A stretch of DNA of 63,171 bases, filler included, from Basidiobolus ranarum (GCA_040143965.1; 38 parts of 38 records of this genome joined end to end with filler, not necessarily neighbours in it), one strand, 5' to 3'; counted from the whole stretch's first letter, positions 1,881-63,171 are shown. Numbers and translations: made by a program. The notes: a model not told the origin generated them from the sequence alone.

Positions 1881-3094
1881 TCTTTTTACCTCGGATAATT
1901 ACCTTTTATTGCGATGGCCTACTGCTTGAATTGGTAGAAATAGAAAGCTTAATACTGATCAAGATCACGTTTACTTGCCTTATCACTTGTGCAATGTTAA
2001 AGCAAACTCTAATTCGGACCAAAAAGAGTGAAATCATATCTCCTTGATCATATGATGGTTCAAAAGTGTTGTCAAAAACCTAGTTCTCGCCAATCATCTC
2101 TTAGAAATCCCGCAAATATTCACAAGTACTCGAATATGGAATCCGTGATAGTTTCAAGTCAAGTGCCTTTGCGTTATACAAATAAAGCATTAGCAATTTA
2201 TTCAGAATTTACCTCTAAAGTAACGAAGATTGTGCCAGTTATCTCCTAGATATAATTGAACTAAGTGAGATAAGGAAAGCCTCCACTAATTTCGTGATCC
2301 AAACATTATTGTAGTACAAAGATAGATTTGATTAAATGATTATCCCAACCCTTAGCCCTAACCCTGATCTATCATTAAATACTTAGTAATATTGAATTAT
2401 CACAATAGAAGCGCTCTAGAGTAAGAGATCACGCATTGCTATCACATGAGAGTGGATACGATACACACCTTAAAATACAATTTTGCACGATGATCGGTTG
2501 TTCAGGTCGGTAACTGCCTCATTGGAAGTAAAGTTCGAATATATTCATGTGACCATTCCAAATCGTAACAGTGGGACAATTTCATCTCTGATTTCTGATT
2601 TTTCACCAACAATACTCCTCCGCTGTATGCAAATTCTGAAATCACGATCAACATCAATTACCCAGTTTCGTACTCCGACAGAAGTGAACTATATTGTATC
2701 CTAGTGCCAATACAACATGCGATCTAGTGCATTTGCCTGAAATTCTAAGTCATACTAAACCTTATCTTGTACACCACAACTCATCCCTATAGATCATTAC
2801 ACGCCAAATGAGGTCATAGAATTAGAGACCTCAGCCCACCTGCGCTCAACAGAACCGTAAAACTCTTTATTAACAAAAAAAAGAGTTGCCAATTCTTACC
2901 TTTACAGTGTACTTACTCATAGGGTTCAATGAGATAAATATATTCAAATTTCTATGAATTCACACAAGTATAATGGTATTTTATTTATATTTATGTGGTG
3001 ATTCCTTTTGATGTCGACAAAATGAAAATATATTATAATTGAGGTGTTAATATGCAATGTGAATAGCGAACGAATGCTTAAATTGTACAAGAGC

Positions 3095-3246
3095 TTAAAT
3101 TTGTCCTTTTTTCTCAACTGCAGCGGCCTGTAGCTCAGCATCTCTGTCCTCTTTATAGGTATACTTGGTGGCCAAGAAGCAGAACACAGCGTTGGCGACA
3201 AGGCCAATACCACAGTAGAGGAAGTATTTGGGAGGTCCTTGCACTG
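3095..3246 (-). CDS. C-terminus of a POT/PTR2 (SLC15-like) peptide transporter (partial, not in ORF track)
   Basis: Manual translation VQGPPKYFLYCGIGLVANAVFCFLATKYTYKEDRDAELQAAAVEKKGQI* gives a last TM helix followed by a Y.Y.E tail, as in PepT/PTR C-termini. Confidence 0.55.
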
Positions 3247-3346
3247 NNNNNNNNNNNNNNNNNNNNNNNNNNNNNNNNNNNNNNNNNNNNTTAATTAATT
3301 AANNNNNNNNNNNNNNNNNNNNNNNNNNNNNNNNNNNNNNNNNNNN

Positions 3347-3817
3347 TATCTGAATGTAAATGGAGGGTGAAACTGCTTGATGCTTGAAGTTATGATCAGG
3401 TAACGCTTGTTGAGGTAAAGATTGACCAAGAGTATTTGCTAACTGTAAGGGTAGATCTAAGGGTAAAGCGTTCGATGAACCTGTACCAGCTATCCCCGGT
3501 ACATTTTTACTCGCGTTATTGAACCCTGAATCTGAAGCTTGAGATAGTAGAGGATCTTCAGAGTTAGAATCATCTGCAGGTGGTGTTTGAGCAATATCCA
3601 TGCCTCTTTCAGCATCCTGTGGCATTTCATACACTCCTGGGGTAATATTACCATCACCACCTGACCCAGAATCGAAAACTTCTCCCTGGCAAGATTTTAC
3701 ACCGCTGGCTTCCACTTCAAAGCTAGGTCCTGACTGATATTTGAGGTCAGAATTGTTTTGCCCATTGATATTCGCACTGTTCAAGTTATAATTCTTTCTG
3801 GTAACAGTGGTAAACAC
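3347..3817 (-). CDS. Low-complexity Ser/Pro/Gln/Asp-rich hypothetical protein (partial; start uncertain)
   Basis: Open frame of about 157 codons running into the contig edge, with a diverged copy at about 4260-4430. Confidence 0.45.
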
Positions 3818-4259
3818 TTGCTTGAGCAGGGGGACTGACTCTACGCTTTCTGGCTGCTCAACAGAGGAGGTGTATTCTTCATTGTAATCTGTTGAAGTCG
3901 CCTTTCATCTCTATGACAATTAGAGTATCTTTGCAGCAACTAATACCTTAACAAATAAAACCGAGGTGAATATTAAGCCAGGTATTCAATGCATAATTGT
4001 GATGTTGTTACGTATATAAGTTTATTCGAATTTATATTAGTATGAATACCATATTTACTCAAACATATTTAATGCTTTAAGCTGCGTCATTCTATATAAT
4101 TCAGATGGCAAGTAAATGAAATAGATTTATTGAAGTATTGACTGAATGCTCGCTTGCTTTATCTGACTCATGCACTTGAAGTAAGTAACTGTAACTTAAA
4201 TATGTATAAAAGATGGTTAAGAGCAAACTAACATTAGGACTATCAACTTAATTGTTGGT

Positions 4260-4430
4260 AAAATTACTGAATCTGATGCTTGAGGCGGTAAAGTATCTTC
4301 AGAGTAAGAGCCATCCGCTGGTGATGTCGGAGCAATTCCCATTTGGCCCTCAGAATCCTGTAGCATTTCATGGTGTAATATTACTGTCACCATATGTCCC
4401 AGAATTGACAATTTCTCCCTGGTCATCAAT
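4260..4430 (-). pseudogene. Degenerate tandem paralogue of the 3347-3817 ORF segment
   Basis: QGEIVNSGTYGDSNITP / EMLQDSEGQMGIAPTSPADGSYSEDTLPPQASDS aligns with QGEVFDSGSGGDGNITP..EMPQDAERGMDIAQTPPADDSNSEDPLLSQASDS across a frameshift. Confidence 0.6.
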
Positions 4431-5018
4431 TTAGCAAAGGTAAGACTAAAGTTGTAATGCAGAAGTATCATGAGGTTTTTACTAATTCATACTTTTCATT
4501 ACAGAATTGGCCAGCCACCAGAATTATGCAGCATCCCACTATTCGAGCGCTTGCAACACGTTGAATGCCACTGGAGGTTTGCCAAACCAGAACTATGATC
4601 CAGTTGTCCCATTACAAGTAACCAAATACATATTCTTGAGAAACTTCTTGGCTCAAGTGATATCATTACTTAATATAAGCCCCCAGATACAGTACTTTTT
4701 ATCAAGTACCAGTTGTCCTGAATAATATAAACCTTCGATAATATAAACCTTCGATGATATACGGAACTAGGGAACTATTGCAATTGGAATAGACTCGAGA
4801 AACTCAGTAACCGCCTTCTCTATCTTATTAACCGCCTTCTCTATCACAAATCAAAATACTTTCAGCTAAAAGCTACAACCATGTGTTCAACCATTGCTTA
4901 TTAGTAATGAATTAGTGGNNNNNNNNNNNNNNNNNNNNNNNNNNNNNNNNNNNNNNNNNNNNTTAATTAATTAANNNNNNNNNNNNNNNNNNNNNNNNNN
5001 NNNNNNNNNNNNNNNNNN

Positions 5019-6690: not shown

Positions 6691-8261
6691 TAAGTGATAT
6701 TTGACTAAATAATGTTGACTAACTAATATGTGATATATGAAATAGTTAGGTGTATAAAGATAGGGATAACATATATGATAAAGACAATAAACTTCAACAT
6801 AGTCCACTTACATCTTGACAAAAATACAAATGTCAACTTTCTGCTCAATAGATTAATAAGTGAAAACCACCAATTTCTCTAATTCCCCAAACCACTTCCT
6901 ACAGGCTCCCAAATACTTTAACAGGTTATGAGGCCCAAGCTTACCCTCTCTGTAATGTCTACTTCTTAAATTTATGGAACTTTTCTGTCTTCTTAAAAAT
7001 TTGACGGAATCAGTTATCAAGTTTGGAAAATTTAAATGAATATGCTGCTGCAAGAAAAAGGATTTTTGGACACTATTGTAGAAGAAGACAATACAAAGTT
7101 ACCTGAAGCCAAGGTTTTACTCCAGGTCCAAAAAGAACAAAGTGCTTTCAACAAAATTTGCCTTAATGTTAAAGAAAAATTGCAAATTCACTGTTCAAGA
7201 GCTAAAACTGCCAAGAAGGTATGGAAAGCCTTGGAAGACACCTACAAACATGTTCTGCTGCCAACATGATGTTTCTAAGAAGACAATTCTTTAACTTAAA
7301 GATGAAGCTAGGAGCAGTCAGCAAGTCACTAAATAATAGAGTAACTATTTAGTGGATGATATGGAATGAACTGCAATACCTACTACTGATCAAGATATCA
7401 TAGTTACAGTCCTGAATAGCTTGCCACATGAGTTTCAGAGCCTAGTATTGGCTCTAGAATCAAGAACTGAAAATTCAACCTTAAATTAAATATTTGGCAT
7501 ACTTCTGGATGAACATTTATGCAAATTGGGATTCAGCCAAAAGAGTGAAGAAAATGCTTTAATAGGCTCTGGGAGACCTTCCTATCAAGGTCAAAAGCAC
7601 TTTAAGAAGAAGAGTAACATATTCTGTGAATGCTGTAAACAAACTGGCCATTTAAGCAAAGATTGCTTTAAAAGAATTGCAAAAGATGAAAAATGTACTG
7701 AATCTGGAAATGTGATTACAACAGAAGAGCACTTGTTCATATCTGCTCTGTCTATTACTACCAACTAGGATTCACATTCTGTGATTACTGTAGAAGAACT
7801 GGCCATTTAAGCAAAGATTGCTTTAAAAGAATTGCAAAACAAGAAAAACATACTGAATCTGGAAATTTGGTCATAACAGAAGAGCATTTGTTCATATCTG
7901 CTCTATCTATTACTGCCAACAAGGATTCTCAGACATTGTATATTGACTCTGGAGCCTCCCAACATCTCACAAATGAAAAATATTGGTTTGTAGATTATGA
8001 AGAAATCCCAATAGAAAGGTTTTTGTGGGAGATAACCACTTATTGGATGCTATTGGAATGGGAATAATTCAAGTCAATTTGAATGGAGATTCTAAATAGA
8101 AAGTGTATACTTTGAAGGATGTACTACATGTTCCAGATATTGCCAACAATTTAATATCTGTATGCAAGGCCACCTTGGAAGGGCTAAAATTCAATTTTGA
8201 TAAGTCAGGGTGCACCATCACTGACCAAAATGGGAGTTTTTTAGCTTTGGGAGAAAAGGAT
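6691..8261 (+). mobile_element. Ty1/copia family A remnant: LTR end, PBS, gag (UBN2, CCHC) and protease
   Basis: LTR ends ...tttaaca at 6923 followed by PBS ggttatgaggccc. Motifs: CECCKQTGHLSKDC, LYIDSGASQHL and LKDVLHVPDIANNLISV. Multiple stops and frameshifts. Confidence 0.9.
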
Positions 8262-15043: not shown

Positions 15044-16612
15044 ATTATCTTGCAAAGTTATTCACAACTCCACTTTTCTAAAGTTCCTCCAAACAGCCCA
15101 TATTTTCCCAATAATTTTTATATAGTACTTTCACACTATCATAGCTTAGATGACCCAAGTTCTGATGCCAAGTCATCAAGTTTCCAGAAGTAATTGTTGC
15201 AAAGTTAGAAACAGTCTCAGTCATTGGTGTAATATCCTGGTGATATAGATTATCAATTCTTGTTCCAATTGCTACTATCAAGTCCTTTGATTTGTATATG
15301 GTTGCTTTTCTTTGGCTGAATTTGACATCATAACATTTCTTTTCAATTGCTCCAATTGAAAATAGATTTGTTGTAAACGATTGAATATATAAGACATCTT
15401 GCAAGGTTACCATTACACATTTGGTTTACTTATTTGTAAGTCAAGTGTGATCTTTCCCATACCATATGCAACCAGTTTGTTTCTTCCAGCCACTGTGATG
15501 TCCAGAGGTTCTATTTCCTTATAGTCATGCATTATGTTTCTATTGTGACACATATGACCACTTGCACCTGAATCCAGAATCCATAAATCAGCAGAGTCAT
15601 TTCCTGATTTAGTGGTTGCCATAAGTACATAGTGTTCATTTCCTCTTTTAGTGGTGTTGTATGCTTCCTCTTTCTTTGAAACCTACTTCTTCTTTGATCT
15701 GCAATAACATGAAATGTATCCAAGTTTTCCACATTTGTAACATTTCACAGTGCTTCTATCTGATTGGCTATTCTGAGAATAAAATGCTTGTGTAGGTTTT
15801 GTTTCATTTGCAAGCTGACTTTTATCTTTGCCTTTAAATTCTTCTTGACATAGATGTGTGATCAGATAATGCTGAGTAAGCTTATCCTCAATTGCTTCCA
15901 AAGTGAGTACAAGGGCTCAACATGATTCAGGGAGACAATTAATTATGGTAAGAATTATGTCCATTTCAGATACTTCATAATTCACTGATTCCTGTTGTTG
16001 GGCAAGTTTCTTGACACCATTTACATATGTCACAATATCTGAATTGTCAGACTTGCAAGAGTTTAAGAATTTTCTTTATAGCATCATCAAGTGGGCAAGC
16101 CCTTTTTGCTTGTGATATTCCACTAGGATTTCCCATGAATTCTTGGCTGAGTCAGCATCTCAGACTAGCATAAGTTATGATCCCAGTCTTAGACATATTT
16201 GCCTAAATGTCAATCTGTCTTTTTCTTTGAAGGTTGCCATGGCTGCTTTATGTGTTGGCTTCTTTGTTTCAGTGTCAGTATCTGTACTTTCTTCTTCAGA
16301 AGTTTCTTCTTGATCATCTGGTTGAACTACTTCCCAAACATGATTCCCTTCAAGCACCAGTTGCTTCTTGGATTTCCATTCATGGAAATCTTCCCCATGG
16401 AATGTTGGAATATTAGTAATCTCCTTTTGGGAAGAAGATTCTAATTCATTTGCTGCTACCATGTTGGAGGATCTTGATATAATGAGGGTAGACTTTGTGT
16501 ATTAGAAGTAACTTATGATAGTGTGTTTTAGTTACATTATTCTTAAGAGTAAATGGTGACTTATATTTTAGAAAAGTAAATTAATTGTTTGAGATATACA
16601 GGAGTTTTTGTA
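15044..16612 (-). mobile_element. Ty1/copia family B: LTR end, PBS, gag (CCHC), protease, GAG-pre-integrase
   Basis: LTR ...caagatcctccaaca ends at 16462, followed by PBS TGGTAGCAG. Motifs: IPTFHGEDFHEWK, CYKCGKLGYISCYC, WILDSGASGHM and WHQNLGHLS. Confidence 0.9.
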
Positions 16613-16714
16613 NNNNNNNNNNNNNNNNNNNNNNNNNNNNNNNNNNNNNNNNNNNNTTAATTAATTAANNNNNNNNNNNNNNNNNNNNNNNNNNNNNNNN
16701 NNNNNNNNNNNNAC

Positions 16715-16935
16715 CAATTACGCCAGCAGCAAATGCAACAATTACAGCATCAACATCAACATCCTCAGCACGGCAACGGGGTAAAGTCAATGGTTTCACA
16801 ATCATCATTTTAAACAATTTTGACCTTGTTTTTTTTCAGGATGCAACTGAACAAACCCTAAGCAGTCTGGGGATACATCAACACTCTCACTCTCAAGGAG
16901 AATTGAATGATGGATCTTTCCTCCTTCCTGTCTAA
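16715..16935 (+). CDS. 3' end of a Gln/His-rich host gene with one intron (16781-16839)
   Basis: QLRQQQMQQLQHQHQHPQHGNG | GTAAAG...ttttttCAG (59 nt) | DATEQTLSSLGIHQHSHSQGELNDGSFLLPV*. Splicing keeps the frame open. Confidence 0.65.
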
Positions 16936-17343
16936 CCGAAGCCTTTATTTGCATTATAGTCAACCCTTCAAGTATACTTCACTGTTTTCCAATACACATA
17001 TATGTATCCATGTGATCATGTCACAAAAAGAAGAGACCCTATTCATCACTCGAATTACTCTACAAATCTCCTTTTTTTAATTGGAGCACCACTGCGACTT
17101 CTTACGAATGCCTCTTTATATGCTGCACTACGTTTCTTGCCTTTTCTTATTGCTCTTTCTTATAATATCTCTTCCGGTCGTTGTTGTCAACGTATTAATA
17201 TCTTCATTATTACTTCAGTTCGTCCAAAGATCATCCAATCCTTTTGTGTTTTTATTTTCTAAATGGGATAACGTACTCCTACCTCCTACAACTTCACCAA
17301 TTCTAAAGAGAAAGTGTTCAAAGACTTACTCTGTACCAAATGT

Positions 17344-18281
17344 TTAGTGTTGCGATAACCACACAGGATTGTTTGCTTTTTTCGTTGGTCGACTGCTGCT
17401 AGCTGACGAGATACCCTTTCTTTTATAGCTGGTAGAGAGAGGTTCCTTCAATCTGCAAAAACGTTCTGGTCTTCCTCCATTTGAGCGCAAGTTAAAAAGA
17501 ATATGTCTAAAGTTCAAAGTAGCAGCCAGGTCACGAGTCCAAAGACGATGGTGAGAAACTTCAGTAGTTGCCTCAGTAGTATTGGTCACGACCTTTAAAC
17601 ACTGTTGGTTTTTGCACCTGAGCAGAAATTGGGTTTGAATTTGGAATTTTTCACTTGCATGTAAAAAGCGTTTACCTTAAAAGGCCGTGACGATATACAA
17701 TAGGATACTTTTCTCTTTTGTATGGTCTAGGATATTGTACCTTTTGAAACTTTTCCAGTTCACCGTTCTGACAAGTAGGGCGTAGACTTGAAGTTTTAAA
17801 CTCGTCAAGGAGATATAGCTGGAAGCCTCCTTTGGCTAGCATTTTTCTCATTCCGGCGCCTCTATTGGGCTCACGATACTTTACATTTTCAGCCGACCAG
17901 CTACCAAGTATTAACATAGTATCATTCCGAAACTTCTCTCGAAGATTCTTGGCAAGCCGTTTGTCTGATTGTAGTTGGTTAATGAAACTTGAGAGCTTCA
18001 TTTTTCTAAAAGGTAACAATCCCCTGATATGCCGGTCTTCTCCTGCAGGACGATCTTCATTTCAAGTAATACGCTCTCATGACCAGAGTGACTTTGGCTT
18101 TTTCTTGAGAAGATACTCGGCAAACTTGTCTTTATGGCCGCCGTAATCTCTTTCTCGCTTCCCCCGTTCTTCTTCATTTCGCTTTCCAGCGCTTTGATTC
18201 TTTCGTTCTTCTTCAAGAGCAAGTTAAGAAACATTCTGACTTTGTTTTCGACTTGAAGGTTGCTACCTTTCAGATAAGCTG
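17344..18281 (-). mobile_element. Fanzor1 (eukaryotic TnpB-like RNA-guided nuclease) gene remnant with intron 17618-17675, internal deletion and frameshift
   Basis: PFRKMKLSSFIN...LILGSWSA...EPNRGAGMRKML...LLDEFKTSSLRPTC...HGLLR|CKNQQC...RLWTRDLAATLNFRHIL. This has the relocated RuvC-II Glu (DE..TS) before the zinc ribbon and the RuvC-III RD..A..N motif typical of fungal Fanzor1. Confidence 0.85.
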
Positions 18282-18508
18282 NNNNNNNNNNNNNNNNNNN
18301 NNNNNNNNNNNNNNNNNNNNNNNNNTTAATTAATTAANNNNNNNNNNNNNNNNNNNNNNNNNNNNNNNNNNNNNNNNNNNNCTGGGGTTCATGTATCTGA
18401 GCTGTGCAGGCATAGGCCCAAATTTGGGACTCATTGATAGAGTAATCGGAGCTATTTCTGATCAAATTTGATCTCCTGGTTTGGGATAAAGGTACTACAA
18501 CTTCTGGT

Positions 18509-19950
18509 TATTGAAATTAGCATTGCCTAAACACCTATATAGCCATATATAGCTTAGTACTTAGTTATCTTATAATTCACTAATATATTATCAATTATTC
18601 CCAATTGGAATTTACTTAGAATATTTTTACTAACTTAGAAGTTCTCAGATATATAGACTTTTCAAACTTATGCTAGAAGCCCCCAACTGTGCACACATGT
18701 TCCTGGGACCTTCCTTTACACATTCTATATGTTTGTTTGTTTACATCTTGACAAAACTATAAATGTCAACTTTGTACTCAAGTAATCAATATGTGAAAAA
18801 CCACCAATTCCTCTAATTCTTCAAACCACTTCTAACAGGCTCCCAAATACTTTAACAGGCTATGTGCCCCAAGCTTGCACTCTCTGTAATGTCTACTTCT
18901 AAAATTTATGGAACTTTTCCCTCTTCTGAAAAATTGGATGGAGCCAATTATCAAGTTTGTAAAATTGAAATGAACATGCTGCTGCAAGAAAAAGGACTTT
19001 GGGGCACTATTGTAGGAAAAGAAAACAATGCAAAACTATCCAAAACTGAAGTTTCAGGACAAGTTAAAAAGAACAAAGTGCCTTTAAAACAATTTGTCTT
19101 AATCTTAAAGACAAATTGCTAATTCAATGTTCAGGAGCTAAAACTGCCAAGAAGGTATGCAAAGCCTTGGAAGACACCTACCAAACAAGTTCTGCTGCCA
19201 ACAAGATGCTTCTAAGTAGACAATTCTTTAACTTAAAGATGAAGCCAGGAGAAGACACTAAATCACTAATTAATAGAGTCACTATTTTAGTGCATGAAAT
19301 GGAATGCATTGGTGTACCTACCACTGATCAAAATATCATGGTTACAGTCCTGAATAGCCTGCCACACAAGTTTCAGAGCCTAGTATTGGCTCTAGAACCA
19401 AGAACTGAAAATTGACCTTAAATTATGTATTTGGCAGACTTCTGGATGAAGATTTATGCTAATCAGGACTCAACCAAAAGAATGAGGAAAATGCTTTAAT
19501 AGGTTATGGGAAACCTACCTATAAAGATTAAAAGCACTTGGAGAAGAAAAGTAACATATTCTGTGATTACAGTAAAAGAACTGGCAATTTAAGCAAAGAT
19601 TGCTTTACAAGAATTGCAAAAGAAGAAAAACATACTGAATCTGGAAATATGGTCACAACAGAAGAACACTTGTTCATATCTGCTCTATCTATGACTACCA
19701 ACAAGGATTCTCAGATGTGGTATATTGATTCTGAAGCTTCCCAACATTTCAAAAATGAAAAACATTGGTTTGTGGAATATGAAGAAATCCCAATTAGAAA
19801 AGTCTTCATGAGAGATGACCGCACATTGGATGCTATTGAAATGGGAACAATTCAAGTCAATTTAACTGGAGTTTCTGAAGAGAAAGTATATACTTTTAAG
19901 GATGTACTACATGTTCCAGATATTGCCAAGAATTTAATATCTGTATGCAA
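18509..19950 (+). mobile_element. Ty1/copia family A: complete 5' LTR (18509-18857), PBS, gag, protease
   Basis: LTR tattgaaattagc...tttaaca (about 349 nt), PBS ggctatgtgcccc, then KLDGANYQV, SSAANKMLLSRQFFNLKMKPGE and WYIDSEASQH. Confidence 0.9.
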
Positions 19951-30051: not shown

Positions 30052-31100
30052 CAAATAACAAAGTACTCACCATAAAGCTGATGGTATTACCAATATACTT
30101 GATGGACATCACTACCAGAATCTGAAAAGTCAAGGTTTCTTTGAGAACACATGTGATCATGCATTTGCATTGGCTCTGAATGGTTTCTCACTAAACAAAT
30201 ATACCGCTAGAAAGGCTTGCTGGCCACTAATTCTAATCAACTTAAATCTTCCTCCTTCTGAATGGTATAACAGTCATAATATTTTGATACTATCCATCAT
30301 ATCTGGACCTAAATCACCGGTGCTTATAGATATCTTCTTGGAGCCCTGGATTACGGAATTTGAACGGTTATCTAATGGGGTGCATTTTAAGCTAATAATA
30401 TTCCTTCTTATCAGCTTATTGTAGGCATCAGACAATCTTTGCTAGATTACTTCAAAGGCCCATCATACTAATAGTTTTGACTCTTGTTCATTGAATAAAC
30501 ACAATATTTTCAATATTGAGACTAAACATGTTAAAGGTGCTTTGTTCTGTTTTAACCATGAGTAAAACTCTGGCTTTACACAGCTTTGCTTTGTTTTCTT
30601 CAGCTACAAATTTATGCAAAAGTCCTTATTCTTGTGGTAGTATTTTTATTTGTATTGATGGACCTTCATAATTGAATCCATCCAAATCACAGAAGAGAGA
30701 TATTTTCTTGATATTTGAAGGGTAGATATTACTGAGAGCACAAGCTCAGTGCTCATAACCTATTAAATATCTTGGGAGCCTGTTGGAAGTGCTTTTAGAA
30801 CTAGCGAGATTTGAAATTTTGCCTACTCATTTATTTAGTTGAAAGTTTACATATATAGGTTTGTCAGTATGTTTGCATGTTAACATGTAGAATGAGTTAA
30901 GGAAGATCCCAGGAGGATGTGTGCAAAGATAGGGATTTTAGCACAAGTTTGAAAAAAGCTGTATATCTCAGAATTTCCAAGTTGGTATAATTTTCTAACA
31001 AAATTCTGTTTGAGAATAATGCATGATAGATGAATGAAATATATATTCACTAAACTCTAAGCTTTATATGGCTATTTAGATGTTTATGCTATAACTACTT
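30052..31100. mobile_element. CACTA transposase fragment (+, to about 30385) abutting a copia gag/PBS/LTR remnant (-)
   Basis: ACWPLILINLNLPPSEWYNSHNILILSIISGPKSP; the minus strand has ggttatgagcactgag PBS-like sequence at about 30760. Confidence 0.7.
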
Positions 31101-31716: not shown

Positions 31717-33280
31717 TCTGCCAAATACATAATTTCAGGTCAAATTTTTAGTTCTTGATTTGAGAGCCATTACTAGGCTCTGAAACTTGTGTGGCAGCGT
31801 ATTCAGGACTATGACTATGATATCTTGATCAGTAGTAGGTACTCCAAAGCATTCCATTTGATCCACCAGAATAGTGACTCTACTAATTAGTGATTTATTA
31901 ACTTCTCCTGGCTTCAGCTTTAAGTAACAGAAATGTCTTCTTAAAATCATCTTGTTGGCAGCAGAACTTGTTTGGTAGGTGTCTTCCAAGGTTTTCCTTC
32001 CCTTCTTGGCAGTATTAGCTCTTGAACATTGAATTAGCAATTTGTCTTTAACATTATGATAAATTTGTTGAAGGCACTTTTATTGGGAAAATTTGGGCTG
32101 TTTGGAGAAGCTTTAGAAAAGTGGAGTTGGGAATAGTATTGTGAGAAAATTAGTTATTGTCCAGAAAAGAAGCATTTATACATTATGGTGGAAATACAGA
32201 AAACTAACACTGGGGCTGTGCTCAGAACATCTGTGGGAGTAAGATAAGCTATTTTTGGGGCAATTTGGACAAGTTTGATATTTCCAATATGGAATTGCTA
32301 ATTCTCACATTATTCACATGTATTTATAATGTATGTTTTGATTTGCAGTTAAGTGATATATGACTAAGTATTGTTAACTAACTTATATATGATACATGAA
32401 ATAGTTAGGTGTAAACTTCAACAACTTTGTTCTTTTTTAACCTGGAGTAAAACTTTGGTTTCAGATAGTTTTGCATTGTTTTCTTCCCCTACAACAGTAT
32501 TGCAAAGTCCTTATTCTTGCAGCAGCATTTTCATTTTAATTTTCCAAACTTGATATTTGATTCCATCCAATTTTTCAGAAGAGGGAAAAGTTCCATAAAT
32601 TTGAGAAGTAGACATTACAGATAGTGCAAGCTTGGGACTCATAACCTGTTAAAGTATTTGGGAGCATGTGGGAGGTGGTTTGGAGATTTAGAGTAATTGG
32701 TGGTTTTCACTTATTGCTTTATTGAGTAGAAAGTTTACATGTATAGTATTGTCAAGATATAAACAACTAACAAGTAGAATATGTTAAGGATGGTCCCAGG
32801 AATATGTGTGCAAATTTTGGGGCATCTAGCACAAGTTTGAAAAATCTATATATCTGAGAGCTTACAAGTTGGTAAAAATACTCTAAGTAAATTCCAACTG
32901 AGAATAATGCATAATAACTTAGTGAATTATAGGATAACTAAGTACTAAGCTATATATGACTATATAGGTGTTTAGGCAAAGCTAATTTCAACAAATATAA
33001 GCACCATGTTGAATAAGAATTAAGGGAAGGTTTTGGAAAATTAATCTTTATTCAACATCATAGTTAACTTTAGTTGTGATAGATATATCAGAAACAGAAA
33101 GCAATGTATCTATAGCCCCTAGATTCTAAATAGGGATATCTCTGTATGCATTCAACAAGTATGTCTTATTACCTCCACTTATCTATTATATCTTATTACA
33201 CAAACTCCTGAATATCTCAAACAATCAATTCACTTTTCTACTATATAAGTCACCATCTACTCTTACAAATAAAGTAACTA
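31717..33280 (-). mobile_element. Copia A gag and 5' LTR (32647-32993), with a copia C solo LTR inserted (about 32080-32420), adjoining a copia B LTR (32994-33280)
   Basis: SSAANKMILRRHFCYLKLKPGE. Gag resumes on the far side of the C-type LTR. PBS ggttatgagtccc at 32646. Confidence 0.8.
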
Positions 33281-45844: not shown

Positions 45845-46581
45845 TAGCTCCAGATCTGGTTGAATTACAAAATGTAGTCCCAAAACCATCTTGTTTTTGG
45901 TTAAATTTCTCATATTTTCAGCTCCTAGATGACCCAATCTCCTAAGCCAGATTTTCCAGTCTATCTCTTCAGTGGTGGCAGTATTAACTTGTTCATATAT
46001 TGGCCCAATATAATGAAGTTTATACAAGTTATTTTGCTTAGCTCCAGAAGCTACATAATTCTCTTTTTGATCCCTGATTGTACAGCCATTTTGATAAAAA
46101 TTAAAGCTGTATCCCTCAGATGTAGCTTTACTCACTGATAACAAATATTTTGCTATCCTAGGCACATATAGCACATTTTTCAGTGTCAAATACATGTCCC
46201 CAGAGATGTCCCCAAGATCCACTTCAATATCTCCCACTCCCACAGCTTCTAGTGGCTGGCCATCTTCCATATAAACCTTCTTGTTTATGTCAGTTTTGAG
46301 TGTCTTAAACTAGTTTTTTTGATTATAGAAGTGTCAAGAGGCTCCAGAATCAATGTACCATGACTTAGAGTCTTGTTCAGTGGTCACTGATAGGGCAGAA
46401 ATTAATATAACTTCCTCTTTGAATGAGACCTGATTTGCTTGTTCTGACCTCTCATTTTTGTTGTAATTTCTTGATTTGCAATCTTTTAACTGCTATCTGT
46501 GTTTGTTACAACCAGAGAATAAGCCTGGTTTCCTTCTTTTGTAACCTTTGTACTTGCCAAAGCTACACTTTCCAGCTCCAA
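45845..46581 (-). mobile_element. Ty1/copia (further family) CCHC, protease and GAG-pre-integrase
   Basis: WYIDSGAS at about 46340-46362; LKNVLYVPRIAKYLLSVSK; WLRRLGHLG. Confidence 0.85.
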
Positions 46582-49348: not shown

Positions 49349-49902
49349 GACTTGTTCCATTTTGTTGAGCCAGATCAGGCCAGCTAAAAAGTGTGCCAGC
49401 ACAAATTGGCATGATTGGGCACTATCCAGCACAATGTTATTTACTGTTTTGGAAACAGTTTATTTTACTTTTGTGGTATATTCAAGAAAAGTACTTTTAG
49501 ACATTGTTGCACATTCAAAAGATGATGGAAGCTTTATTCATAGTGTCTTAAGTCTAGAGCTCTCAATGGATATCTCTGAGTATGGATGTATTGAGAATTA
49601 ATCAAGATATTGACTACTTTGCCTGACTTTGATTGAGGCCCACAAAATGATTTTCCTCTATACTTTCCTGCTAAAATGCTATATCTCTTTAGGAAACCTA
49701 AGCTATGTTCTACTCTTGCTCTAAAATAAGAAAAAATGTCATTATAAAGCTTTTGCCTCTCTGTGTGTATCCCTCCTCTGGGCCTCTTGTAAGCAGTGAC
49801 ACATCCTAGCCTTCTGCATTCTTCCCCAACATATGCTAAATCAGCCATAGTCTTCTCATATCTTACAAATGGTGCATGCCTCTCAACCCAAAGCCTTTTG
49901 TC
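49349..49902 (-). mobile_element. ISL2EU/IS5-like DDE transposase C-terminus (49534-49902) and opposite terminus
   Basis: ADLAYVG...TAYKRPRGG..TERQKLYNDIFSYFRARVEHSLGFLKRYSIL is a DDE_Tnp_4 signature. Terminus TA|GACTTGTTCCAT at 49349. Confidence 0.8.
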
Positions 49903-50002: not shown

Positions 50003-51562
50003 TGAATGGCTCATTCATAATGAATATGCAACCATATAGCTGAGTAGGTAGTATTGGAATGTTGTTGAATAGTAAGTGCATAGTGCCTAATGGGAAGCTT
50101 GGGTTCCAGCTGATCCACTTTAGCAATATAATCTTAGGCTTACAGCTAATACCAAGTTTGATGTTAGACTGACTATTTGGTGAATTGATATCAGTGATCA
50201 TGTTGAAATCTGACCAGGCTCTTTATGGTAAAATCATGAAGTTTAGTGTTGTCTTTGCATAGTAGTAATGTGTATGCCTGTTAGAGTAAACTCCATTGAT
50301 TTGACAAAATCTACAGCAGGATGGTGCACTATGCCCATCAAAACCTCCAAGTTTACTGATGGCAGGAGTAGCTCCAATACAGACAATGATATTAGATTTA
50401 ATAATATATTCACACATCGGAACCCCATTTAATAACCATTCAAATTCCACAATCAAAGGCTCCAAGAAGCTATCTGTAAGCATTGGTGATACAGGTCCAG
50501 ATATGATGGATAGTATAAAAATGTTATGACTCTTATACTGTTCAGAAGGAGGAAGATTTAAGTTGATTAAAATTATTGGCCAGCAAGCCTTTCAAATGAA
50601 ATGTTTGTTTAGTGAGAAAGCATCCAGAGCCAATGCAAATGCATGATCATAAATGTTCATGAAGAAACCTTGACTTTTTTGATTGTGGTAGTGATATCCA
50701 TCACAAACATTGGTAAAACCATCAGCTTTATGGTGAGTGATTTGGTATTGGATCAATGATCTATAATTGGGTGATTTAAGCAAAACTTTGATATGAGGAA
50801 TCAACAGTGTGTAAGCCAAATATAAGCAATAACTACCTGATTCAGTGATTGCTAATTATGTGCAAACAGGACATGGCTTCAGGTTTTGCAGATCACTGGT
50901 GCAAGCCAAACAACCATTTGGACATGAAGGTAGTTTAATTTCTGAAGGATTATAAGTCATAGAATTGACTAGTGTTATCCACTTGTACCAAGTCTGTGGC
51001 AAGCAACAGTTGCCAATCAACTGTGTTAAAAGTGAAAGATGACCAATAACACCTGGTTGCTAAGATTGGATCAAACTCTCCACTCCTCAATAATCAAAGC
51101 TGCTTCCTTTACTGTAAGTGTTATGAGTGGACTAATGTTTGCCAATAACAAAGAGTCCGTAACAAAACCATTGTCTTCTTCTTCAACTTCTGATATACTA
51201 CCATTGGTACTGGAATAACCAAGGTCAACATCTAGCAGCAAGTCCTCAAAGTTGTCTGGACTTACTGGTTCAACCAAAGTTGCATTTTGACCTACATCAT
51301 TCTGGTCATATAACTGTGGTAACTCCACAGTATCTTGACTTTTGGCAGTGTTACCAAAACTTTGAGGCAAACTACAGTCAGTGGACTCAATAGGCAAAAC
51401 TAAAGTTGATTTAGTGCACTTATTACTGTTGTTATACACCAGGCTTTGTGCAGCTGGTGGCTTTGTACAGTGACTGTGCTTGTGATTATTTTTTCTATGA
51501 AGCCTCTGGCTTTCATAGCACAAGAATTTGTGACAATAATAGCAGGGCTTCTTTAAACGTTT
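50003..51562 (-). mobile_element. CACTA transposase 5' two-thirds, pseudogenised
   Basis: AFALALDAFSLNK and DSFLEPLIVEF..GATPAISKLGGFDGHSAPSCCRFC. Confidence 0.85.
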
Positions 51563-51662: not shown

Positions 51663-53221
51663 ATTTCTATCCTATCCAAGGTCAAGCCTGCACAGGCTGA
51701 GATCCTTACTGACGATGCTCTCAGATTCGTCGCTACTCTTCATCGTACCTTCAACCCTACTCGTTTAGCTCTCCTCAAGCGTCGTGAAGATCGTCAAAGA
51801 GAACTCGATAACGGTGTTCTTCCCGACTTCCTTCCAGAGACTGCTTACATCCGTAATGACCCTAACTGGAGAGCTGCTCGCCCTGCCCCTGGTCTTGAAG
51901 ATCGCCGAGTTGAGATCACTGGTCCAGTTGACAGAAAGATGGTCATCAATGCTTTGAACTCTGGAGCCAAGACCTTCATGGCTGACTTTGAAGACTCCTC
52001 CGCTCCTACTTGGGACACCCTTCTCGATGGTCAAATCAACATGCGTGATGCTCTCCGTCGTACCATCACCTTCACCGCACCCAACGGCAAGTACTATAAG
52101 CTTCGTGATGATGGCAAGATCGCCACCTTACTCGTTCGCCCACGTGGTTGGCACATGGAGGAGAAGCATCTCTTGATCGACGGTCAACCTTGCTCAGCTT
52201 CCATCTTTGATTTCGCTTTGTACTTCTTCCACAATGCTCGTAAGTCTGTTGAGATCGGAGCTGGTCCTTACTTCTATCTTCCCAAGATGGAGTCTCATCT
52301 TGAGGCCAGACTCTGGAACGATGTCTTCAACGCTGCTCAGGATATGCTCTCAGTTCCTCGTGGTACCATCCGCGGTACCGTGTTGATTGAGACTCTTCTT
52401 GCTTCATTCGAGATGGATGAGATCATCTATGAACTTCGTGACCACTCATCTGGGCTCAACTGTGGTCGTTGGGATTACATCTTCTCCTTCATCAAGAAGC
52501 TTCGTCAACACTCCAAGTATGTTCTTCCTGACCGTTCGGATGTCACCATGACCTCGCCATTCATGGATGCCTATGTCCGTTTGTTGATCAAGACTTGCCA
52601 TAAGCGTGGAGTACATGCTATGGGAGGTATGGCCGCCAACATTCCTATCAAGAACAACCCACAGGCCAATGAAGCAGCTATGCAAAAGGTCCGCAACGAC
52701 AAGCTTCGTGAAGTGAAGGCTGGTCACGATGGTACCTGGGTTGCCCACCCTGACCTTGTCAAGATCGCTCTTGGTATCTTCAACGAGCACATGACCACTC
52801 CTAACCAAATCCACCTTCGTCGTGATGATGTCCAAGTGAGTGCTGCTGATCTACTCAACAACAACATCAAAGGTGGTAAGGTCACCGAGACTGGCATCCG
52901 TAACAACATCTCCGTTGGTATTGCTTATACTGAAGCTTGGCTTCGTGGCTTAGGTTGTGTCCCAATCCACAACCTCATGGAGGACGCAGCTACTGCTGAG
53001 ATCTCACGTTCTCAATTGTGGCAATGGGCCAAGCATCAAGTCAAGACTGCTGAAGGCAAACAAGTCACACAACAATGGCTTCTCCAGCTCTTGGATGAGG
53101 AGACCGACTCATTGAAGAAGCAACTCGGCAACAAGTATGCCAGCTACAAGTACGATCTTGCTAAGAAGTACATGGCTGGTCAAGTGTCTGGTAAGGATGA
53201 AGACTATGCTGACTTCTTGAC
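51663..53221 (+). CDS. MLS1: Malate synthase (glyoxylate cycle, type A), nearly complete, both ends truncated
   Basis: One open frame over the whole contig: [76 protein letters not shown] and [19 protein letters not shown]. Confidence 0.97.
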
Positions 53222-59956: not shown

Positions 59957-61404
59957 CTTTCAGCAACTCCATTTTGTTGTGGTGAATAGGGGGCAGTAGT
60001 TTCTTGCTTAATTCCATAAACTTTGCAAAAGTGCTCAAATAGTGTTGAAGTATATTCTCCACCATTATCAGTATGTGTTTTCTTGATTTTAATTCCAGTT
60101 GCAGTCTCCACAAGTGTTTTAAAATCTTTTAAGATAGAGAAAGCTTCTTCTTTTCTTTCCATAAAGTAGATCCAAGTGTATCTTGTATAATCATCAATAA
60201 ATGTGACTAAATATCTCTTTCCACCTCAAGATATATTTTGCATGGGTCCACACAAATCTGAATGAATTAGATCCAATTGTTTGACAGATTTGATTAAACC
60301 AGAACTCTTGAACAATTGCCTGGCTTGCTTTCCATATATACAACCCTCACAAATTTCCATTTTAGTTGGGAGGTTATTTTGAATCCCAGTAATTAGGCAA
60401 TTTTGATCATTTTGCTCAAATAATCAAATTGAATATGGCCAAATCTCTTACGAGATAATTGAATAGTTTCTTGATTGGAATAACTTATATTTACACATAA
60501 ATTTCTTGGATTATATGTAAGTTTGTATAAGTTTTGATCCTTTTCTCCCAAAGCTAAATAATTCCCATTTTGATCAGTGATGGTGCATCCTGACTTATCA
60601 AAATTGAATTTTAGCCCTTCTGAGGTGGCCTAGCATACAGATATTGAATTCTTGGCAATATCTGGAACATGTAGTTCATCCTTAAAAGTATACACCATCT
60701 CTTCAGAAGATCCAGTTAAACTGACTTGAATTGTTCCCATTCCAATAGCATCCAATGTGTGGTCATCTCCCATGAAAACCTTTGTAATTTGGATATCTTC
60801 ATATTCCACAAACCAATGTTTTTCATTTGTGAAATGTCAGGAAACTCCAGAATCAATATACCATGTCTGAGAATCCTTGTTGGTAGCCATAGATAGAGCA
60901 GATATGAACAAGTGATCTTCTGCTGTAACCACATTTCCAGATTAAGCATGTTTTTCTTCTTTTGCAATTCTTTTAAAGCAATCTTTGCTCACATGGCCAG
61001 TTCTTTTACAGTAATCACAGAATGTGTTACTTTTCTTCTCAAAGTGCTTTTGACCTTTATAGGAAGGTTTTGCATAACCTATTAAAGCATTTTCCTCATT
61101 CTTTTGGTTGAGTCCTGATTTGCATAAATCTTCATCCAGAAGTCTGCCAAATACATAATTTATGGTCAAATTTTCAGTTCTTGATTCTAGAGCCATTACT
61201 AGGCTCTGAAACTTGGGTGGCAGCCTATTCAGGACTGTAACTATGATATCTTGATCAGTGGTAGGTACTCCAATGCATTCCATTTCATCCACTAAAATAG
61301 TGACTCTATTGATTAGTGATTTAATGTCTTCTCCTGGCTTCATCTTTTAGTTAAAGAATTGTCTTCTTAGAAATGTCTTGTTGGCAGCAGAACTTGTTTG
61401 GTAG
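59957..61404 (-). mobile_element. Ty1/copia family A gag, protease and integrase
   Basis: CDYCKRTGHVSKDC, LIHSDLCGPM and TDNGGEYTS...TTAPYSPQQNGVAE. Confidence 0.9.
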
Positions 61405-61677
61405 TGTTGGATAATTAATCTTTATTCAACATCATAGTTAACTTTAGTTATGATACATATATCAGAAACAGAAAGCAACATATCTATAGCCCCTATATTC
61501 TAAATAGGAATATCNNNNNNNNNNNNNNNNNNNNNNNNNNNNNNNNNNNNNNNNNNNNTTAATTAATTAANNNNNNNNNNNNNNNNNNNNNNNNNNNNNN
61601 NNNNNNNNNNNNNNGGGAGGGGGGGGGGAGGAAAACTGCGGGGGGGACGAAGGGGGGAGGAGCGTGGGGCAAGGTTT

Positions 61678-61761
61678 GGAAAAATGACCGAATTGGTAAG
61701 GTGGAGGCCTGCTAAGCTTCGGGACTTATGGTCCCTGAGGGTTCGAGTCCCTCTTTTTCCG
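61678..61761 (+). tRNA. trnS: tRNA-Ser(GCT), mitochondrial type
   Basis: Acceptor GGAAAAA/TTTTTCC, anticodon arm GAGGC-CTGCTAA-GCTTC, long variable arm GGGAC/GTCCC, T arm GAGGG-TTCGAGT-CCCTC, discriminator G. Confidence 0.88.
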
Positions 61762-62806
61762 TCCGTTTACCCCCCCCCGAAAGGGCTTTATAGTTGCCAG
61801 GGGGGCCCCGACCCCGACTGAACTAAACCCCCCCCCCCAGGGGGGGGAAGTACCCTCTCCCGAGGTTTCGCTCGTGGCGAAGAGCCAAAGGATCCCCGGG
61901 CGCCCCCTACCCTCCCCTCTGGGGGGGGGGTTTGCTCGGACCCCCCCCTTCGGTCGCATCTGGGGGCTCCCCCCCCCTATCCCCCTAGGGGAGGGGGGGG
62001 AGACTTCCCGGTTTTCCCCCCCCCCGTTTGGCCCCCCTGTTTCGCCTCCCGCCCCCCTTTTTTCAGGGGCTTCGGCAGGTGCGAAGGGGGGGGATTTTTA
62101 TACTCTGGAAGGGGCCGGGTGGTGCCGCGCGCCCCCCCCCCCCCCCCCCCCCCCCGCGCGGGGCCCGGCGGGGGGGGGGCCCCCGGGGGGCGGCACCCGC
62201 CCCCCCCGGGGGGGGGTAGGATGGGGGCCCCCCCGATCCCTTCCTCCCCCCTCCCCGGTTCGGGGGGGAAACACAAGGGGGGGAAGCACTGCATGGGGGG
62301 GCTCCCATCCGGCTACGCACGGAGGGGGGGGGAGCTGAGGAGGGGGGGAAGGGGAAGCACAGGGGGGAGTGGCCAAAATGGGGGGGGGGTTTGGGTGGGG
62401 CCTACGGGGCAATTAAATTCCCCCCCCCTCCAAAGGGGGGGGGGCGGGGGGTCGGTATAAATCCCCCCCCCCGTCCCGGGGGGGGGGGGTGGGGGGGGGG
62501 GGGGGGCCGGCCCCCCCGGCCCCCCCCCCCGCGCCCCTCCCCCCCCCCCCCCCCGGGGGCGTCCTACGCCCCCCCCCCCCCCGGGGGGGGGGAAGTACAG
62601 CCCTGTGGATTGGCCGGTTTCCCATTAGCGGGTGGCCATCCTCCCCGGTCCCCTCGTTTTAATAGCCCCCCCCTCCGTAGCCCCCTCTGTCCGAAACAGG
62701 GGGGGGGGCAACGGGGGATGGGGGGGGGGCAATAGGGGGGCCCGTTCGGGAGTGTGGGCCCCTCCCTCAGTATAGGGAGGGGCCATTGGAGGGGGGGGGA
62801 ACTCAA

Positions 62807-62880
62807 GCACCTTTAGCTTAATAGGATAGAGCGTCGGTCTTCGAAACCGTAGGTTGCCCGTTCAAATCGGGCAGGGTGCT
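62807..62880 (+). tRNA. trnR: tRNA-Arg(TCG), mitochondrial type
   Basis: Acceptor GCACCTT/AGGGTGC, D arm GCTT..GAGC, anticodon loop CTTCGAA in stem CGGT/ACCG, T arm GCCCG-TTCAAAT-CGGGC. Confidence 0.85.
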
Positions 62881-63171
62881 GAACATTCCCCTCCCTCGGG
62901 GGAGCCTTTGTACGATCGGGCCGACCCCCCCTATCCAGGGGGGGGCCTTTCCAAATTATCCAATCTCCTTTCCATTATCGCTCAGGGGGGGACAAATCTG
63001 GGGCCTCCCCAACACGACCAAAGCGGGGGGGGGGAGATGATGAGTTTACGGGTGCCCCCACTTGGTAGGGAGAGGGAAACCTCCCCCCCCCTGTTTTATA
63101 CTGGCTGCATTGAACCAATGGGGCGAAGCACAGGGGAATAAAATAATGGGCGAAGCACGGAGGCCCCCCGC

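Follow-up and report, generated by a model that had tools for sequence, protein, structure and literature searches.

A probable, recently inactivated Fanzor1 pseudogene of Rhizopus type with a candidate omega-RNA hairpin at its 3′ end

Fanzor1 proteins are eukaryotic, transposon-borne RuvC nucleases that are guided by an omega RNA and descend from TnpB. We analyzed a 63,171-base stretch of DNA (the window), which consists of 38 contigs of 1557-1573 base pairs (bp) arranged by falling length and joined by N44-TTAATTAATTAA-N44 linkers. One of these contigs carries on its minus strand three open reading frames (ORFs) that a sequence-only reading had interpreted as the remnant of a Fanzor1 gene. 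That identification proved sound. Judged from its sequence, the locus is a Fanzor1 remnant of the Rhizopus arrhizus/R. delemar lineage, and it is very probably a pseudogene that lost its function recently. As a transposon relic it is genuine but unremarkable, a new decayed member of a well-described family.

The assignment begins with four peptide strings, all of which are found in translations of the minus strand where they had been placed: LILGSWSA (17891-17914), DEFKTSSLRPTC (17771-17806), HGLLR (17675-17689) together with CKNQQC (17599-17616) on either side of a GT..AG interval, and RLWTRDLAATLNF (17509-17547). In phmmer searches against the sequences of solved structures, the middle fragment matches Fanzor1 of Parasitella parasitica (PpFz1, chain 9cf0_P) at E=4e-35 and Fanzor1 of Spizellomyces punctatus (SpuFz1, chain 8gkh_P) at E=1.2e-13. 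Against PpFz1, the C-terminal fragment scores E=4.6e-4 and the upstream fragment E=4e-3, the latter reaching 1e-15 to 3e-22 against its closest Rhizopus homologues. A match in the same structure set to ribosomal protein eS31 of the PDB (E=0.011) is weak, and the Pfam and NCBIfam matches to EF-hand_like, Angiomotin_C and RPC3 are below cut-offs; these were taken as chance.

Furthermore, 31 of 106 candidates in a large protein collection reach E<=1e-3, and the named homologues all come from Mucorales (Rhizopus arrhizus, R. delemar, R. microsporus, Gilbertella and Helicostylum). The nearest are hypothetical proteins of R. arrhizus/delemar with 75-76% identity, and the Mucorales relatives of the window copy in turn match PpFz1 at E=1.6e-140. 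In a maximum-likelihood tree of a 129-residue core, the R. arrhizus/delemar clade and the window copy are sister groups (support 95/90), with the window copy on a long end branch of 0.23 (29 rows, omitting P0030, P0032 and P0034, whose aligned stretches are too short).

The catalytic residues can be read against SpuFz1, whose triad is D383, E541 and D606 and in which the glutamate follows the fifth strand and precedes the TNB domain (PMC11423790). Correspondences were counted along printed alignments, with SpuFz1 numbering taken from the same paper. Two members of the triad are retained in the window copy. The RuvC-II glutamate in LLDEFKTSS stands directly before the TNB zinc ribbon, as had been claimed, and aligns with E541. 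The RuvC-III aspartate in RLWTRD aligns with D606 by way of P0005, a Rhizopus homologue, and the predicted RD..A..N helix is present, with RLWTRDLAATLNF aligning to RLWNRDQAAVLNF of PpFz1. The third member is gone. The DPG/DPN motif that should carry the RuvC-I aspartate has its P0005 counterpart, VLIDPGRRDLLYC, inside 817 bp that the window copy lacks, and the first aspartate of VLIDPGRRD in P0005 aligns with SpuFz1 D383. The absence of RuvC-I, also noted earlier, is thereby located.

The zinc ribbon (CxxC ... CxxxxC) is likewise incomplete, with three of its four cysteines present. The first has become arginine, and its CGC codon is a single transition away from the TGC found at this position in the closest DNA relative, just as the sequence-only reading had described. 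As for related proteins, the RuvC-II/zinc motif was detected in 20 of the 31 homologues (no match in the other 11), every one of the 20 has cysteine at both positions, and in alignment A1 C455 is nearly invariant and C458 invariant.

The history of the damage becomes legible by comparison with L001, a 4815-bp locus that emerged as the closest DNA relative among eight loci from a metagenome scan. L001 encodes P0005, with 100% identity over the best segment in that scan. By tblastn, the protein lies on L001 in two exons, with 99.6% identity over residues 1-490 (2569-4038) and 100% over residues 488-577 (4089-4358). The window copy aligns to L001 in two blocks, 18279-18126 with 2620-2773 (84% DNA identity over 154 nucleotides, nt) and 18133-17315 with 3583-4404 (79.5% over 833 nt). 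The first block encodes the segment AYLKGSNLQVENKVRMFLNLLLKKNERIKALESEMKKNGGSEKEITAAIKT, homologous to P0005 residues 18-68 and to PpFz1 chain positions 642-694 (about PpFz1 residues 232-284). L001 has two copies of the octamer AAAGACAA (2766-2773 and 3583-3590) where the window copy has one, indicating that 817 bp were lost between two 8-bp direct repeats. This internal deletion is the reason why RuvC-I is missing, and since 817 is not a multiple of three, it also shifts the frame.

A single frameshift near 18110 had been proposed. The frame is indeed disrupted in this region, but by three lesions rather than one: the deletion junction, a 2-bp insertion and a 1-bp insertion relative to L001. 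Between the two insertions a third frame reads QEKAKVTLVMRAYYL, which matches P0005 QERAKVTHVMKAYYL at 12 of 15 positions, and this stretch accounts for two apparent in-frame stops. When read from the contig end, the frame meets TGA at 17998-18000, ahead of the nuclease core. A GT..AG interval of 30 nt at about 18042-18071 was considered as an intron and rejected on two grounds: 30 is divisible by three, and in the alignment with L001 insertions account for the frames. The C-terminal tail also carries a 6-bp in-frame deletion relative to L001.

In contrast to these lesions, the separation of HGLLR from CKNQQC is normal gene structure and not damage, because the 58-nt intron between them occupies the same position as an intron of L001 (4039-4088, GTAAGT...CAG). 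As a result, the earlier view that the three ORFs join into one protein is right in that all belong to the same gene, and wrong in that no simple join connects them; with the intron removed, the deletion frameshift and the two insertions still interrupt the reading frame. The gene models P0013, P0014, P0018, P0020 and P0024 run through the conserved intron after HGLLR (e.g. HGLLRYETFNY), so that the second zinc pair and RuvC-III are lost from these Mucorales models; the pattern suggests an artefact of annotation, not a biological difference.

Position 18281, which had been given as the end of the feature, is not a gene boundary. It is the end of the contig before a linker, the gene runs off the contig there, and about 230 N-terminal residues would lie past it. 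Neither the 5′ portion of the gene nor either end of the element lies within the 1.57-kb contig.

Over 281 aligned codons (Nei-Gojobori), the window copy and L001 differ by 0.52 synonymous substitutions per site (dS) and 0.14 nonsynonymous substitutions per site (dN), giving a dN/dS of 0.26. This ratio indicates that most of the divergence built up under purifying selection, before function was lost, and by this measure the disabling lesions are comparatively recent. With RuvC-I lost, frames broken and a zinc cysteine replaced by arginine, the copy is predicted to be inactive, in agreement with the earlier view, and would be unable to make an active nuclease. Internally deleted copies of DNA transposons usually arise by slippage or microhomology-mediated repair, and one or the other, acting between the two AAAGACAA copies, would have produced this deletion. 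Before these events, the ancestral element would have worked as PpFz1 does, with an omega RNA encoded at the 3′ end directing DNA cleavage beside a short target-adjacent motif (TAM).

Three observations pull away from this account of a Fanzor1 gene and its inactivation. First, none of the three fragments gave a relevant family in Pfam or NCBIfam, and the homology rests instead on solved structures and database proteins. Second, the reference is itself not fully open: the N-terminal piece of L001 (2187-2432) lies in another frame than the main ORF (2356-4041), near a T-run, which reflects either a frameshift or an assembly error. Third, the lesions are read from the assembled sequence, which leaves a small probability of sequencing or assembly error.

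The 3′ end of the gene may hold a second recognizable component. The experimentally derived PpFz1 omega RNA starts with a stem-loop 1 (SL1) of 7 bp with loop TTATCG, then GGTAAG shortly before the guide, which begins at about nt 50 (PMC11423790, Table S3). Compared with it by eye, the window copy has a candidate SL1 that overlaps the last codons and the stop, with TTATCG and then AGTAAG in the same order. The hairpin is present in the minimum-free-energy fold. Four lineages have a hairpin with loop TTAWCG or TTATAG at the stop codon or close to it, and in L001, L003 and L004 the stem surrounds a TTAACG or TTATAG loop and is followed by a G-TAA-rich block. In an ungapped 20-nt alignment of the four sequences (A3), 67.9% of cells pair and 5/7 pairs have changed on both sides. 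For covariation the alignment scores 0.619 compared with 0.309 for shuffled alignments, 19 of 500 shuffles score as high, and slid registers score lower.

Several results point the other way. Alignment A3 covers hairpins of 20 nt from four sequences, in a register chosen by hand, and two of the seven pairs in the window hairpin are unpaired. Folds of single sequences are no better than shuffles (z=+0.58 for the window, z=-0.21 for L001), with L003 the exception among the 3′ folds at z=-1.81. RNAalifold recovered 0 pairs from a MAFFT alignment of the 56-73-nt stretches, because MAFFT misaligned them, and Rfam gave no match on the Fanzor contig. Weighing these data, we give roughly even odds that an omega-RNA scaffold is retained at the 3′ end of the window copy. 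If so, the ancestral RNA would have formed SL1 at the hairpin and its scaffold would have ended near 17315.

This position coincides with the sole visible limit of homology, the right-hand one. Homology to L001 goes on for 29 nt beyond the stop codon and stops abruptly at 17315. Position 17315 may be the right end of the element, with the guide position just past it. This reading, too, has a competitor that detracts from it, in that the loss of homology could be mere neutral divergence: at a dS of 0.52, unconstrained DNA would be unalignable anyway. The DNA that follows contains no Pfam-bearing ORF (ORF 16960-17259 is without a family) and no Rfam match, and is either flank, with its first ~20 nt then at the guide position, or unconstrained element DNA.

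Table 1. Features of the Fanzor1 copy, its contig and other contigs of the window
Feature	Position	Strand	Remarks
Contig with Fanzor copy	16713-18281		1569 bp, 39.8% GC; linker on each side
Linkers beside this contig	16613-16712 and 18282-18381		N44-TTAATTAATTAA-N44
N-terminal-half Fanzor1 segment	18127-18279	-	AYLKGSNLQVENKVRMFLNLLLKKNERIKALESEMKKNGGSEKEITAAIKT; open to contig end
Junction of 817-bp internal deletion	18126-18133	-	single copy of AAAGACAA
2-bp insertion relative to L001	18107-18108	-	CTTCTCAAG vs CTTC--AAG; frameshift
1-bp insertion relative to L001	18063	-	CTTGAAATG vs CTT-AAATG; C-terminal frame regained
Last part of exon 1	17676-18062	-	RuvC beta-strands, LILGSWSA, LLDEF (RuvC-II), first half of TNB zinc ribbon; ends in HGLLR
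RuvC-II catalytic Glu, GAG	17801-17803	-	retained
First zinc-ribbon Cys replaced, CGC (Arg)	17780-17782	-	TGC in L001
Spliceosomal intron, phase 2	17618-17675	-	58 nt, GTAAAC...CAG
Exon 2	17347-17617	-	second zinc pair CKNQQC, RuvC-III RLWTRDLAATLNF, basic Ser-rich tail
RuvC-III catalytic Asp, GAC	17530-17532	-	retained
Stop codon	17344-17346	-	TAA
Candidate omega-RNA SL1	17346-17365	-	TGTGTGG-TTATCG-CAACACT, 5/7 pairs formed
Rest of candidate omega-RNA scaffold	17315-17345	-	ends in GTAAGTCTTTGAACA, 15/15 identical to L001
DNA downstream of Fanzor copy	16713-17314	-	without similarity to L001/L002 or other window contigs
Copia-type pieces	15081-16501, 19068-19948, 31738-32079, 45845-46309, 60945-61346, 7702-8064		Pfam
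Tnp2/CACTA-type (Transposase_21) and Harbinger-type (DDE_Tnp_4) transposase fragments	30059-30421, 50226-50591, 49537-49902	+, -, -	Pfam
Contig of 49% GC	51663-53221		filled by a malate synthase ORF of 520 aa without interruption (Pfam E=5e-119)
Contig of 69% GC, last in window	61615-63171		several overlapping long ORFs, no Pfam family

Since the window joins unrelated contigs by linkers, adjacency within it carries no genomic meaning. By blastn, the Fanzor contig matches only itself among the 38 contigs, and tblastn with the 31 homologues over the window gave matches confined to 17362-18279 and no further Fanzor copy. A repeat search on the Fanzor contig found no feature resembling a terminal inverted repeat (TIR). 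The window has 57 ORFs of 100 amino acids (aa) or more, and 46 of them were scanned against Pfam; the remainder were three on the Fanzor contig that had been scanned earlier and eight antisense ORFs that overlap others in GC-rich contigs. Families were assigned to 13 of the 46, namely pieces of copia gag and pol, transposases of the Tnp2 and DDE_Tnp_4 families, a PAS domain and a complete malate synthase. Fragments of copia-type long terminal repeat retrotransposons (Retrotran_gag_2, DUF4219, gag_pre-integrs and Pol_BBD) occur on many contigs, and a homologue search with the copia gag ORF at 19068-19412 gave nothing at E<=1e-3.

The origin of the contig is a separate matter from its decay. A serious possibility, which we rate somewhat short of even and which is compatible with the pseudogene reading, is that the contig derives from a Rhizopus-like mould present in the sample as a contaminant or co-inhabitant. 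The PAS-domain ORF of the first contig (24-422, minus strand) matches only Basidiobolus ranarum/meristosporus (6/6 matches, up to 74% identity), whereas the named matches of the Fanzor copy are all from Mucorales and none from Basidiobolus. This contrast means that the assembly is either mixed or contains a transferred element. Contigs of unusual composition (49% and 69% GC), which may be bacterial or otherwise foreign DNA, together with the same contrast make a mixed assembly probable. On the other side of the balance, just one other contig has been placed taxonomically, the 39.8% GC of the Fanzor contig is within the range of the others, and transposons do pass between fungi.

A bolder scenario takes the contig as native to a Basidiobolus-like host (Zoopagomycota). 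A Rhizopus-type Fanzor1 element would then have crossed recently between phyla and decayed by internal deletion while its omega-RNA scaffold was kept, possibly leaving a non-autonomous derivative that consists of the RNA only. We consider this combination unlikely. If the contig is native, the crossing must be recent, since vertical descent would have left a dS to the Rhizopus-type copy far above the 0.52 observed. No paper containing both “Fanzor” and “Basidiobolus” turned up in a full-text search.

Two further proposals concern the state of the copy rather than its source. It could be a non-autonomous, internally deleted element whose RNA module still functions and which is mobilized, or has its RNA loaded, by an intact Fanzor1 or transposase elsewhere. 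Such an element would have given up its nuclease while retaining the omega-RNA scaffold and the right end. Clean deletion at microhomology is typical of non-autonomous derivatives of DNA transposons, the SL1-like hairpin is kept, and the final 15 nt ahead of the homology boundary are identical to L001. Moreover, internal deletions are frequent in Chlamydomonas Fanzor1 families, where deleted copies have intact 3′ ends (PMC3627910). We nonetheless regard an active RNA module as improbable, given the two unpaired positions in the hairpin, the lack of a second copy in the window and element ends that lie off the contig.

The least probable proposal is that the gene is intact in the organism and that a poor, fragmented assembly created the deletion, both insertions and the Cys-to-Arg change, for example through a collapsed repeat or sequencing errors. 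It can draw on the fact that contigs of ~1.56 kb come from the tail of a fragmented assembly and that mis-assembly is common for multi-copy transposons. Against it, the 8 bp shared at the junction would as a rule be too short for a k-mer assembler to mis-join, the small insertions lie outside homopolymer runs (CTTCTC; CTTGAAA vs CTTAAA), four independent lesions in about 1 kb suit decay better than error, and many annotated Mucorales relatives are themselves truncated or short of motifs (11/31 without a RuvC-II/zinc match and 14/31 without a RuvC-I match).

Such a relic carries little weight alone. Reports of Fanzor1 genes from Rhizopus, Mucor and Phycomyces, multi-copy and decayed ones included, go back to 2013 (PMC3627910), and the close relative PpFz1 has already been solved and shown to be active (PMC11423790). 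The locus is of modest use in three respects. It provides a base-level account of how one copy died, through a deletion between 8-bp repeats that took out RuvC-I. For the Rhizopus-type lineage without the FRI insertion described below, it proposes where SL1 and the scaffold end of the omega RNA may lie, which could help to annotate intact relatives. It also serves as a warning that the window is an assemblage of unrelated contigs of probably mixed origin. Should the contig prove native to a Basidiobolus-like host, it would document the transfer of a Fanzor element across phyla.

Among characterized systems, PpFz1 (PDB 9CF0-9CF3) is the best solved-structure match, and it shares with the window copy the blocks LLPFRKMK..., GNWSA, DEFRTSS and HGLLR as well as the RuvC-III helix RD..A..NF. 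PpFz1 is an intact and active nuclease of 849 aa with an ATN TAM (PMC11423790), whereas the window copy bears the lesions described above. The two also differ in architecture. PpFz1 contains an FRI insertion of ~105 aa (chain 987-1091) that is lacking in P0005/L001 and in the window copy, and the window protein has a C-terminal tail ~35 aa longer than that of PpFz1. We rejected the idea that the missing FRI domain hides in an unannotated intron, because the L001 ORF (2356-4041) is continuous there. A cyclophilin-binding FRI insertion is reported for Parasitella and Rhizopus (PMC11423790), so that FRI-bearing and FRI-less Fanzor1 lineages may coexist in Rhizopus.

The closest relatives are the R. 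arrhizus/delemar proteins P0004-P0012, with 68-76% protein identity, and L001, with 79.5-84% DNA identity. They share with the window copy the intron position, the absence of FRI, the C-terminal tail and a conserved block after the stop. The window copy stands outside their clade and has lesions of its own (the 817-bp deletion, the two insertions and the Cys-to-Arg change). The Fanzor gene of L001 is flanked by inverted repeats (1721-1855 and 4446-4580, 89% over 135 nt), of which none is visible on the window contig; those of L002 reach about 400 nt with gaps at 78%. L001 also has a tyrosine-recombinase-like ORF upstream of its Fanzor gene (region 1-906; Phage_integrase E=6e-4, below cut-off), and none is visible on the window contig. 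Four Fanzor1 families named ‘ROr’ are described from Rhizopus oryzae (Bao and Jurka, 2013; PMC3627910), and the same paper reports MuDR-like TIR elements with Fanzor1 alone in Rhizopus, Phycomyces and Mucor and a partial Crypton recombinase in one Mucor family.

SpuFz1 (PDB 8GKH) has the same RuvC/TNB core, and its E541 and D606 align with the retained Glu and Asp of the window copy; it is a far more remote relative, with an omega RNA of 90 nt and a different TAM (PMC11423790). Bacterial TnpB gave no direct sequence match. The Pfam OrfB/Cas12f TNB model does not match the window fragments, and it reaches the homologue P0016 only below the cut-off (E=1e-3). In bacterial TnpB of IS200/IS605 elements such as ISDra2, RuvC is split by a zinc ribbon and the guide RNA runs from the 3′ end of the gene into the end of the element. 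The window gene shares this general design with TnpB, and differs from it in being a eukaryotic gene with an intron.

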